The notes: generated by a model not told the origin, from the sequence alone. DNA of 64,000 bases from an uncultured Candidatus Rokubacteria bacterium (GCA_963747235.1 CAVVEU010000008.1:480001-544000); one strand, 5' to 3'. Counted from the stretch's first letter, positions 4,444-8,751 are shown. Numbers and translations are program-made.

Positions 4444-5269
4444 ATGCCGACCACGCCCCGGCCGATCTCGCTCGCGCACCTGACCGTGCTGGACACGACG
4501 CCCCCCGAGCTGATCACGGTGGCGGCCGCCGCGGGCTTCCGGACCGTCGGCATCCGCCTGACCGCGACGCCGAGCGTGGGCGTCCCGCCGTACGACGTGC
4601 TGCACGAAGGCCCGATGCTGCGGGAGACCCTCCTGCGCTTGAAGGACACCGGCGTCTCCGTGCTCGACACCGAGTTCCTCCGCTTCGAGCCGGAGCACCC
4701 GATCGGCGTCCCGGAGGGCTTCCTGGAGGTCTCGGCGCGGCTGGGCGCGAAGCACGTGCTGGTCATGAGCGCCGAGCCGGAGGAGGCGCGCACGCTCGAG
4801 CGCTTCGGCGAGCTCTGCGACCGGGCGGCCCAGTACGGCCTGTCCGTCGGCCTGGAGTTCGCGGTCTACACGGGGGTCCGCACGCTCGCCCACGCCGCGC
4901 AGATGGTCGCCCAGTCGAAGCGGGCGAACGTATCGGTGGTGGTGGACGCGCTCCACTTCAGCCGGTCGGGCGGGCTTCCGGCGCACATCGGGCAGGTGGA
5001 TCGCGGCGCTGTTCCGCTACGCGCAGATCTGCGACGCGTCGGCCGACATGCCCGGGCCCACCGACACGCCGAACCTGATCCGCGAGGCGCGGACCGGGCG
5101 GCTGCTTCCGGGTGAGGGCGTGCTGCCGCTCCGCGAGCTGGTGGCGGCGCTCCCGGCCGGTATTCCCCTGGCGATCGAGGCGCCCTCCCGGGCGACCGCC
5201 GATCTGCCCGCGCTCGAGCGGGCCCAGCGCGCGTACCGGGCGCTGTCCGCCCTGCTGGCGCTGCGCTAG
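4444..5269 (+). CDS. Sugar phosphate isomerase/epimerase (TIM barrel), frameshifted near 5010
   Basis: GLEF, VDALHFSRSG, then in a shifted frame YAQICD...RLLPGEGVLPL...IEAP. Confidence 0.8.
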
Positions 5270-6203
5270 CTGATCTCGACCAGCTCCAGGGCCTCGCGGC
5301 TCGGCCCCTCGATCATCACCGCCCGCGTGTCGCCGAGCGGGTAGGGCTCCTCGAGGAACCGCACGCCCTCGCCGCGCAGCTTGGCGACCCAGGCGTCGAG
5401 ATCGGTGACGCTCAGCGCGATGTGATCGTAGAGCTGGCCGCGCGTGCTCGCGAGCGGCCGGTCACCCTGGCGCACGTACCAGGGCAGGGCCACGTCGCCG
5501 AACACGACCGCGGCCGAGGGCGCCCGGAACATCCCGTCGCGATCCAGCGCCGGCCAGCTCCGATCGGGCCCGCGCGGCACCGTGCAGGTGGACTCGGTCA
5601 CCGGCGCGCGGCTGGCGCGCCCGGCATAGACCGGCGCGTTGAGATGGGTCTGGTACCAGAGCTGCGCGCAGAACGGATCGTCCTGGTAGAGGTGCACGTG
5701 GTTGAAGCGCTCGGCCGGGTGATTGCCCGCGTACTCCACGAGGGCGTCGTCGGGGCCGCGCATGTAGCCGAAGCCGCCGCTGCGGGTCGGCTCGGCGCCG
5801 GCGGCCCGCGCCTCGGCGATCTGCGCCTTCGTGAGCCCGGGCGTGGGTCCCTTGCTCGGCCACGTATCGCTGCTGACGAGGACCGACCCGCCTTCGTCTG
5901 TCGTGTAGAGCGGCAGGAGCTCGAGGTCGGGCCGCGCCTCGAAGGTCCGCGAGGCTGGCCCGCGTGTCCGGCACGTGCCAGCCGAAGTGCCAGATCGCGG
6001 TCTGGGGTGACGTGGCGGGCGGGGTCGCGACCCGGGTGAACAGGACCAGCACGTCGTTCGGCGCCGCGAGCGCCGGCCAGGCCGGCCCAGCGCGTCTTCG
6101 CGGAGGTCGGGAAGTGCCGGACGTAGAACTCGATCGCGGCGTCGGGGTCCACCGAGTTCAGGTGGAGATGGTGGAAGCCCGGGGCGGGAAGCATCTCACC
6201 CAT
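5266..6203 (-). CDS. VOC/glyoxalase-family protein, split by frameshifts
   Basis: FHHLHLNSVDPDAA, WHFGWHV, FNHVHLY, YDHIALSVTDLD...MIEGPSREALELVE spread over three frames. Confidence 0.75.
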
Positions 6204-6833
6204 CCTCGCCGGCCTCCGCGGCCTCGGCCTTGGCCTGCTTCACGAGCTGCTCGATGACTTCATAGGGCTGCGCGCCCACGACGCCGCGGTGGCCCGCGAC
6301 GAAGGTCGGCACGCCGGTGATGCCGTACTGGCGCGAGAGCGCCCAGTCCCGGTCCACCGCGTCCTTGAACGTGCGCTTCTCCAGGACCTCGCGCGGCGCC
6401 CGCGACGGGCAGCCCCACCTCCGCCACGATCTCGAGGAGCACGGCCGGCTCGGAGATGTTGCGCGCGTCCACGAAGTAGGCGCGGAACATCGCGTCGTGG
6501 AAGGCCTCGCCGCCCGGCTGGGTGTCGGCCCACTTGCCCAGCTCCTGGGACAGGCGGCTGTTGTAGGTCATGGTGCGCTCGCCGTAGGGGAGGCCCTCGG
6601 CGTCCATGCGCGCCTTCATCTGCGCGTGCATGGCCTTGCGGTCCACGTTGCGGCCCCGGAAGAGCTCCTCGAGCGACTGGCCTTCCGCCGGGGTCTCCGG
6701 GTGCAGCGGGAAGTGCACCCACTCGATCTTCACGTTGTGCTCGACGCCGGAGCTTCTCAATACGCACGGTACTGAGATAGCACCAGGGTCAGACGTAGTC
6801 GGAGAAGACCTGGAGCGTGATGGGCTTGGTCAT
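6196..6833 (-). CDS. DsbA/FrnE-family thiol:disulfide oxidoreductase, probable selenoprotein (UxxC), with two frameshifts
   Basis: ATG 6833: MTKPITLQVFSDYV-TGA(6791-6789)-PWCYLSTVRIEKL..EHNVKIEWVHFPLHPETP...YNSRLSQELGKWA...GITGVPTFV...VVGAQPYE. A hairpin follows the UGA. Confidence 0.85.
6755..6777 (-). promoter_or_regulatory. Bacterial SECIS-like stem-loop
   Basis: mRNA UCUCAGUAC-CGUGC-GUAUUGAGA: 9-bp stem with one G:U pair, starting 11 nt after the in-frame UGA, with G near the start of the loop. Confidence 0.75.
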
Positions 6834-7797
6834 GTTGCCTCCTTGACGAGCTTCTGCAGGCTTCGCAGGCCGGGCGGAATGCGGCTGGCCCTTGTAGCGA
6901 TTGCCCCAGTTAGTGTACGACACCTCGCCCACGTAGATGTCGCCGCGCGAGTCCACCGCGAGGCCGTGCGGGGAGACGAACTGGCCGGGCTCGAGGCCCG
7001 CGAGGCGGTCGCCGAGGCGCGCCAGCCGCTCGCCCCGATGACTGTAGATGCTGACCCGCGGGCCGATATTCGGGCACGTCGTAGTTGACGGGGAGCGCGC
7101 CGCCGATCTCGCCCACGTAGAAGCGGCCCTGGCCGCCGCGCTCCATGAAGAGGCCCGAGGGGCGGTGCATGTCGTGCCACTGCGTCTCGAACCGGCCGTT
7201 GCCGTCGAAGACCTGGACGCGGTGGTTCTCGCGGTCGGCCACGTAGACCCAGCCGTCGGCGTCACAGCAGATGTTGTGCGGGATATTGAACTGGCCGGGA
7301 TCGGTGCCGGGCTCGCCCCACGACGAGAGCAGGGTGCCGTCCGGCGCGTACTTGTGGATGCGCGCGTTGCCGTAGCCGTCGGAGACGTAGAGATCGCCCC
7401 GCGGCGAGAGCGCGGTGTGCGTGCAGCGATGGAACGGCTCGCCGCTCATGTAGGGCCGGGGCTTGCCGGGGATCCCGATGGTCAGGAGCACCTTGCCGTC
7501 GAGCGTGCAGTGGCGAACCGTGTGATCGCCGTCGTCGGTCAGCCACAGGGTGTCGTCGGGCGCCACGTGGACGCCGTGCGCGCGGTGGAAGACGCCTTCG
7601 CCCCAGGAGCGGAGGAAGTTGCCCTCGCGGTCGAGCACGACCATCGGGTGGGCGCCGCGGTTGAAGGCGTAGACCTGGTCCCGCGCGTCCACGCCGACCG
7701 CGGCCACGTCGGCGTTGAACTCCTGGCCCGGCGGCAGCTTGGCCCAGCGGTCGTCCACCCGGTAGCGATAGGCGCCGGTGCCCAGGATGGCCGGCAT
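6830..7797 (-). CDS. NHL-repeat beta-propeller (peptidyl-alpha-hydroxyglycine alpha-amidating lyase-like), frameshifted
   Basis: VYAFNRGAHP, RAHG, YVSDGYGNARIHKY, PGQFNIPHNI, VYVADRENHRVQVFD and SPHGLAVDSRGDIYVGEV repeats. Confidence 0.85.
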
Positions 7798-8751
7798 CAG
7801 CTGCTCCCGGGCCGCGCGCCTCGAAGATCGCGCGCGGGTTGCCCACGAGCATCTGCTGGATCTGCTCCTCGGCGACGCCCGCCTTGCGGAGCGCGGGCAG
7901 GATGTCGTCGGGGATGTGGTTGTAGTTCCAGAGCGGCCGGGTCCGGCGCTTGTCGTCCTCGGAGAGCATGTCGCTCCAGCAGTTGGCGTCGTGCGAGAGG
8001 ACCATGCGCCCGGCGTAGCCTTCCGCGCACAGGCGGGCGATGACCTCGACCCGCTTGGGCGTCGGCAGGAAGTGCTCGAGGCCGAAGCGGTCCATGCCGA
8101 TCGTGCTGCCCCGGTCCATGAGCCCGCGGAGGTAGCCCAGGTCCTCGCTGTCGCCGCTGTGGCCGATGATGACGCGGCGGAGATCCACGCCCTCCTGGGC
8201 GAAGATGGCCTGCTGCGCCTCGCCGGTCCGGCCCGCGGCCCAGGTGTGGGTCGAGATCGGCACCCCGGTCGCCTTCTGGGCCCGCGCGGAGGCGCGCAGG
8301 ATGTTCTCGATGACCGGGGTCACGCCCGCGGTGTCGGTGGCGCACTTGATGATGGCGGCCTTGACGCCGCTCGTCCCCGATGCCCTGCGGTGATGTCGCG
8401 GACGAAGAGATCGGCCACCGCGTCCACCCCGTGGCCGCTGAAGTACCGCTGCGGCATCCACCAGACGCCGGTGGCCACGATCACGTGGACGCGGGAGCGG
8501 CGGGCCACGTCCAGGATCAGGCCGATGTCGCGGCCCAGGTCCACGGTGGTCAGGTCCACGATCGCGCGGATGCCGCGCGCGTGGAGATCGGCCATCTTCC
8601 GCTCCGCCATCGCGAGGATGCCCGCGCGGTCCCAGAGGTGCGGCCAGTTCTCCTGCACCCCGGGCGAGCGGGTGACGATGTGCTCGTGCATCAGCGTGGC
8701 GCCGAGCTCGGCCGTGGCCACCGGCCCGAGGGCTGTCTCCACCGTGGTCAT
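7797..8751 (-). CDS. Phosphotriesterase-family amidohydrolase, frameshifted near 8385 and near the 3' end
   Basis: [41 protein letters not shown] and LSHD metal-binding motifs. Confidence 0.88.

Follow-up and report, generated by a model that had tools for sequence, protein, structure and literature searches.

The 64,000-nucleotide (nt) stretch of DNA analysed here (the window; GCA_963747235.1, CAVVEU010000008.1:480001-544000), from an uncultured Candidatus Rokubacteria bacterium, carries on its minus strand a gene for a DsbA/FrnE-like oxidoreductase in which an in-frame TGA codon stands in place of a catalytic cysteine and is closely followed by a hairpin resembling a bacterial selenocysteine insertion sequence (SECIS). 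A preliminary description made from the DNA alone had proposed a hidden selenoprotein gene at this locus, and reading of the minus strand reproduces its coordinates, its motif, the 11-nt spacing and the 9-bp hairpin. The gene occupies 638 nt in the window, two private extra bases included (636 nt without them), and its expected product is 211 amino acids (aa) long with selenocysteine (Sec, U) at position 15 and Cys at position 18. The frame from 6833 reads MTKPITLQVFSDYV, then TGA (6791-6789), then PWCYLSTVRIEKL, so that FSDYV precedes the codon, PWCY comes after it, and TGA replaces the first Cys of a CPWC motif. A spacer of 11 nt (6788-6778) separates the TGA from the hairpin, which consists of a 5' arm UCUCAGUAC (6777-6769), the loop CGUGC (6768-6764) and a 3' arm GUAUUGAGA (6763-6755). 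Open reading frames (ORFs) called in the window under translation table 11 are interrupted at the TGA. Coordinates are collected in Table 1.

Table 1. Features of the DsbA-like gene and its immediate neighbours; positions are counted from the first letter of the window.
Feature	Position	Strand	Basis or remark
DsbA/FrnE-like gene, putative selenoprotein	6196..6833	minus	start to stop codon; direct reading, profile matches, alignment
Shine-Dalgarno-like AAGGAGG	6838..6844	minus	4 nt 5' of ATG; GGAGG block aligned in relatives
Start codon ATG	6831..6833	minus	ATG or GTG aligned there in 20/20 loci
In-frame TGA, predicted Sec codon, U15 of the UPWC motif	6789..6791	minus	direct reading
TGC, predicted resolving Cys18 of UPWC	6780..6782	minus	TGC in 51/51 aligned genes
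Putative SECIS hairpin	6755..6777	minus	9-bp stem, loop CGUGC; inner 7 bp (6757-6775) are the universally conserved core
Private 1-nt insertion, first frameshift	6746	minus	place approximate within CGGCGTC
Private 1-nt insertion, second frameshift	6394	minus	place approximate within GCCGCGCG
Stop codon TGA of the DsbA-like gene	6196..6198	minus	direct reading
Upstream NHL-repeat protein gene	6830..7797	minus	reading frame broken in the window; private 1-nt insertions close to 6881 and to 7071
Downstream two-domain glyoxalase/VOC-superfamily gene	5266..6195	minus	split over two frames in the window

The nearest intact orthologue matches the Pfam DSBA profile (PF01323) with 124.8 bits against a cut-off of 25.6, over profile positions 1-190 of 191, and its best relative of solved structure is FrnE of Deinococcus radiodurans (PDB 5cnw; E 1.2e-25, residues 4-203 on 11-221). 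In that alignment U15 falls on the first C of the CPWC motif of FrnE, and ITGVPTFV lies on ITGVPFFV, the cis-Pro GVP loop. Cys18 is the sole Cys of this orthologue, and its C-terminal tail is acidic and Ala-rich. With the DSBA domain beginning at residue 6 and the active site at residue 15, there is no space for a signal peptide; the N-terminal signal peptide of periplasmic DsbA of the Escherichia coli type is accordingly absent, as judged from the start position of the domain. Judging by its sequence, the protein should be cytoplasmic like FrnE. NCBIfam has no model for the family, and membership of the Rcas_1661 (seleno)lipoprotein family, the best match there, was rejected because its 37.8 bits fall far under the cut-off of 190.

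Homologues were collected by searching 251 genomes belonging to the phylum, including two flagged as unpublished (G116 and G233), and the gene was matched in 94 of them; among the matches listed, every one that starts before query residue 15 has TGA at the site. Combining the loci of this search with 80 loci from named records and removing duplicates gave 104 non-redundant loci, with TGA at the Sec site in 100, TGT in two and TGC in two (TGA in 98 of 102 when the G116 and G233 loci are left out). The codon is TGA in all 20 loci of a first alignment made up of the window and 19 relatives, and both of its sides are conserved, with FSDYV on the 5' side and PWCYLST on the 3' side. If the TGA is taken as U, the gene is intact in each of the 19 relatives, 17 of which give an ORF of 202-216 aa; of the other two, one has a run of N at the 3' end and one has no stop upstream of the start. 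The named relatives are labelled Candidatus Rokubacteria, Rokuibacteriota or Methylomirabilota, and a more distant group consists of metagenome-assembled genomes (MAGs) labelled Alpha- or Betaproteobacteria, some of these labels being plainly inconsistent. A distant homologue that was filtered out of the 104 loci, L084 (G046), also has TGA. L084 and L085 (G048), the two TGA-bearing homologues of greatest distance, belong to another family of the same class, at 31-37% identity, and their motifs read SDYL-U-PWC and SDYL-U-PYC.

The genome encodes the machinery that decoding of UGA as Sec would need. A tRNA-Sec gene (selC; 45388-45481 of contig C14) reaches 69.3 bits (cut-off 47) and is called SeC with anticodon tca by ARAGORN, and both selA (578 bits) and selB (365 bits) adjoin it. 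Matches to selC, selA, selB and selD all lie above their cut-offs, those to selD being split over frames. These four genes and the TGA-bearing homologues had been named in the preliminary description as checks on its reading, and both searches were positive. A full-length FdhA gene (1122 bits; C8:590703-593795) lies about 47 kb past the window end on the same contig; it has one in-frame TGA, at codon 191 (...ARV-U-HS...), with a hairpin that begins 11 nt 3' of the TGA. FdhA is the commonest bacterial selenoprotein, and on its sequence this gene is a second, canonical selenoprotein gene of the genome. Elsewhere TGA is the commonest stop codon, terminating 779 of 1331 long coding-like ORFs, and the genetic code is therefore standard.

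A fold of -27 kcal/mol (z = -3.98) is predicted for the 61 nt of RNA surrounding the site, and none of 200 shuffles was as stable. The bacterial SECIS (bSECIS) model, as quoted in PMC13188914, has an apical loop of 3-9 nt with a G within the first two loop positions, an upper stem of 4-16 bp, a UGA-to-loop distance of 16-37 nt and a minimum free energy of -7.5 kcal/mol or lower. The hairpin here, for which the preliminary description had suggested a run of a bacterial SECIS predictor, fits this model with its 5-nt loop CGUGC (G at position 2, then U), its 9-bp stem, 20 nt between UGA and loop, and -9.4 kcal/mol. Loop variants among the homologues are CGUGC, GGUUC, GGUCC, GGUGC and CGGGC, all with G and then U or G at positions 2-3, which is the published consensus according to the same source (PMC13188914).

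Selection on the hairpin is evident from conservation. The earlier suggestion that the stem is built from codons unusual for this genome is borne out by codon use in the 1331 ORFs, where Tyr is encoded by TAT in 11.8% of cases, Ser by AGT in 1.6%, Arg by CGT in 6.1% and Ile by ATT in 2.9%; in 51 aligned genes these rare codons are fixed (TAT in 47/51, AGT in 50/51, CGT in 51/51, ATT in 50/50). Mean synonymous-codon entropy in the same 51 genes is 0.15 over codons 9-26 and 0.73 outside them; a value as low is reached in only 2 of 145 windows of 16 consecutive columns, and among those that start beyond codon 26 none falls under 0.596. The 37-nt element from the UGA to the end of the stem is 97.5% identical to the reference in 92 distinct TGA forms (minimum 86.5%), compared with 79.8% for the rest of the gene and 70.5% for third positions at identical residues. 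All nine pairs are kept in 62 TGA forms, eight in 33 and seven in four; the remaining form, with three, is L085, a distant homologue with another hairpin.

The four natural Cys forms (two TGT, two TGC) provide the comparison. Their overall nucleotide identity of 74-76% makes them no more diverged than the TGA forms, yet their 37-nt element is only 65-81% identical and retains 3, 3, 3 and 6 of the nine pairs, so that the fold is lost. As the element is conserved in TGA forms and lost in equally diverged Cys forms, the constraint is tied to the TGA. These forms also supply natural Cys/Sec pairing at the site, in agreement with the alignment to FrnE; the preliminary description had proposed such pairing as a check. 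All four (L160, L162, L163 and L174) come from Burkholderiales/Betaproteobacteria-labelled MAGs. Three have altered residues beyond the motif (YLASARVARL); in L163 the residues are nearly unchanged, but common codons replace the rare ones, with loss of the stem.

The reading of this UGA as a Sec codon is well supported by the sequence comparisons, with the earlier proposal finding backing in the machinery, in the 100 of 104 TGA loci and in an element whose conservation is linked to the TGA. We consider it very probable that the gene encodes a cytoplasmic FrnE/DsbA-like thiol-disulfide oxidoreductase with Sec as the attacking residue of the active site, and that the two frameshifts in the window are assembly errors. 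By analogy with E. coli, the hairpin 11 nt 3' of the UGA would offer its small apical loop (xGUxx) to the complex of SelB, GTP and Sec-tRNA(Sec), and the UGA would be decoded as Sec and not as a stop. Sec15 and Cys18 of the product would then cycle between a selenol/thiol form and a selenenylsulfide.

Several observations weigh against this reading. A set of 3000 control in-frame Cys codons from this genome gave 462 (15%) that also pass the bSECIS constraints, and the bSECIS fit alone is therefore weak; 243 of the controls form a hairpin whose stability equals or exceeds the -9.4 kcal/mol seen here, and in 43 the stem runs uninterrupted for at least 9 bp. In a genome as GC-rich as this one, chance alone could account for such a hairpin, whose evidential weight lies in its conservation and not in folding energy. 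Covariation, which the preliminary description had proposed as a check, is thin. Pairs were counted in 97 sequences, 86 of them distinct. One pair (alignment columns 30/40) does covary, from U-A to C-G in six distinct rows with no half-changed row; the other eight are without covariation, six of them being invariant and so uninformative either way, and as many pairs changed on both sides, or more, occur in 178 of 500 shuffles. The structure itself finds support in the share of paired cells, which is 94.8% and drops to 24-53% once the 3' partner is slid. The two pairs farthest from the loop are open in 29 and 11 of the 86 distinct rows, which leaves a conserved core of 7 bp and not 9. The sequences downstream of the TGA in L084 and L085 are unrelated, and 71-nt stretches of the two fold no more stably than shuffled sequence (z of -0.07 and +0.27, respectively; that of L045 is -0.53), although a hairpin that fits the bSECIS constraints can still be drawn in each of the two. 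The related genomes are kin, and the counts given above therefore overstate independence. Sec incorporation and expression of the gene are predictions from sequence, and the artefact status of the frameshifts is deduced from the pattern of indels.

Public annotation of the family bears on the simplest alternative, that the TGA is a true stop. Among the matches listed, public homologues are mostly 180-194 aa and cover 85-89% of the query, and the four examined start at M/V-RIEKL, which is a GTG inside the hairpin, without the active site; the truncation by gene callers stated in the preliminary description is thus evident in public records as well as in the table-11 ORFs of the window. Taken at face value these calls, nearly all of which agree, describe a truncated DsbA-like protein that begins at the downstream GTG (V-RIEKL...) and to which the 14 upstream codons do not belong, and the frequency of TGA as a stop in this genome is in line with such a reading. 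The product, however, would be without the whole redox motif. The 14 codons 5' of the TGA are moreover in frame, lie behind a Shine-Dalgarno sequence and a conserved ATG/GTG, and evolve as coding sequence, with FSDYV conserved and synonymous variation in codons 2-8; the natural Cys forms read through the site, and the rare codons fixed 3' of the TGA would be left unexplained. A true stop is therefore very improbable. Still less credence attaches to a TGA read as Trp or Gly under an alternative code, or to a TGA that is a sequencing error for TGC or TGT. Two public homologue records (P0008 and P0018) do render the Sec codon as Gly (DYVGPWC), apparently because the gene caller picked a TGA=Gly code for those contigs, and the assembly is error-prone. 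However, the codon aligns with the catalytic Cys and not with Trp or Gly, tRNA-Sec, selA and selB are in the genome, and TGA ends not only most of the long ORFs but also the DsbA-like gene itself, both in the window and in 7 of the 19 relatives (L027-L030, L033, L034 and L042); a sequencing error, for its part, cannot recur in 100 independent assemblies.

A different question is whether the window copy is functional, since 6196-6833 is not one open frame even when the TGA is read as U. Straight translation from 6833 gives Arg-rich nonsense beyond about codon 28, and Pfam DSBA is matched in three frames of the window (profile positions 1-24, 28-137 and 155-190) because of two 1-nt insertions private to the window. 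The preliminary description, which took the interval as a single gene, was correct as to start, TGA and stop but missed these insertions near 6746 and 6394 and the three frames that result. Three frames and two insertions private to one of 20 loci could indicate a true pseudogene of a real selenoprotein family. The insertions are not confined to this gene, however: alignment with the 19 orthologous loci places a third extra base near 6881, in the upstream gene, likewise in the window alone, and over 3.6 kb the window has five private 1-2 nt indels (7799, 7071, 6881, 6746 and 6394), of which two lie in the NHL gene and one in the gene beyond. The few-contig assembly G013 also has five over the same 3.6 kb, whereas eleven many-contig assemblies have 0-1 each. 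Compared with G013, its nearest relative, the window has 65 indels with lengths not divisible by three over 26.7 kb; such indels are seen across window positions 1-26670, for instance at 5003, 7071, 7799, 8372, 9450 and 13068. Both selD copies of the genome are split over two or three frames (C27:46033-46945 and C8:303114-303868); rpoB gives one profile match, positions 3-868 of 1238, in a single frame. There is also no further decay, the three protein pieces of the window copy being 88-92% identical to the nearest orthologue and the SECIS intact. Given the private-indel pattern, the split selD copies and the identity of the pieces, the two frameshifts are in all likelihood indel errors of a long-read assembly and not gene decay, and a pseudogene is unlikely. 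Readings of the window that are based on ORFs should allow for frameshifts.

The DsbA-like gene lies within a conserved cluster. In an intact relative the order on the same strand is a phosphotriesterase-family gene, the NHL-repeat gene, the DsbA-like gene, the two-domain glyoxalase/VOC gene and a 6-phosphogluconate-dehydrogenase-like NAD-binding gene, and the first four of these, with the Sec-DsbA-like gene among them, are found on the minus strand of the window at 5266-8461. The ATG of the DsbA-like gene overlaps the stop codon of the NHL-repeat gene (ATGA, 6830-6833), and the two are apparently translationally coupled. Relatives of family f4 have another neighbour upstream of the DsbA-like gene. 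The intact 311-aa orthologue of the VOC gene in L029 matches PF00903. The gene neighbourhood points to no particular substrate.

The 37-nt element is conserved nearly letter for letter, including stem bases that would be free to covary, at 97.5% identity where the remainder of the gene has about 80%, and this conservation spans Rokubacteria/Methylomirabilota and the Alpha-/Betaproteobacteria-labelled MAGs, whose proteins are 61-72% identical. A tentative scenario, which we regard as possible but rather doubtful, is that the gene moves and is maintained together with its internal SECIS as a single unit. If so, this would imply either horizontal movement of a selenoprotein cassette among soil phyla or a SelB that reads the sequence of the stem and not its shape alone. 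In that case the DsbA-like protein, matched in 94 of the 251 genomes searched, would be a core selenoprotein of Rokubacteria. For the prediction of SECIS elements in GC-rich genomes the locus also serves as a clean natural control; there, loss of the hairpin in Cys forms and suppressed synonymous change are decisive and folding energy alone is uninformative.

The practical value of the finding lies in annotation and not in a new kind of biology. Nearly all of the close homologues listed are called without the active site, and an enzyme present in 94 of 251 genomes is therefore recorded without its catalytic residue. One full-length public record shows Cys with flanking sequence of the Sec type, which may be a U shown as C, and one is a true Cys form. 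On the sequence evidence it is well supported that the gene is a correctly called hidden selenoprotein and a fresh member of the DsbA-like UxxC type in Candidatus Rokubacteria/Methylomirabilota. As judged from titles, a literature search for Rokubacteria and selenocysteine returned none on the subject, and one for selenoprotein and FrnE returned, among the matches listed, none on a bacterial FrnE selenoprotein.

DsbA-like UxxC selenoproteins (COG2761) were reported in 2005 from the Sargasso Sea metagenome as nine sequences with predicted SECIS elements (Zhang, Fomenko, Gladyshev; PMC1088965), and DsbA-like selenoproteins are given for Anaeromyxobacter dehalogenans, Desulfovibrio desulfuricans and Desulfotomaculum reducens in PMC1794560. 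The find is therefore not new in kind, as also follows from the remark in the preliminary description that such selenoproteins exist. The entry 'DsbA-like protein form 1, PF01323, UxxC' in a 2026 review (PMC13188914) is the closest counterpart by description, the likeness being drawn from that description: form 1 shares with the gene here PF01323, a UxxC motif with Sec first, and a SECIS just 3' of the UGA with a G early in a small loop, and its Cys-containing homologues are widespread. The members described in this work come from Candidatus Rokubacteria/Methylomirabilota and from Alpha-/Betaproteobacteria-labelled MAGs. In E. coli fdhF and fdnG, recoding by SECIS and SelB likewise uses a hairpin that lies within the gene and immediately follows the UGA, and the corresponding selC, selA, selB and selD are in the genome here; the fdhF and fdnG SECIS sequences are unrelated to the present hairpin, and its binding by SelB is predicted by analogy. 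FrnE of D. radiodurans (5cnw, 5cp1), a cytoplasmic DsbA-like thiol-disulfide oxidoreductase, shares the ITGVP loop and the absence of a signal peptide, but has CPWC where the protein here has UPWC, and is a Cys protein of 260 aa with a longer C-terminal tail, whereas the orthologues here are predicted Sec proteins of 202-216 aa. That tail we take to carry a second Cys pair, in a CX4C motif; the nearest intact orthologue, with C18 as its sole Cys, is therefore without such a pair.

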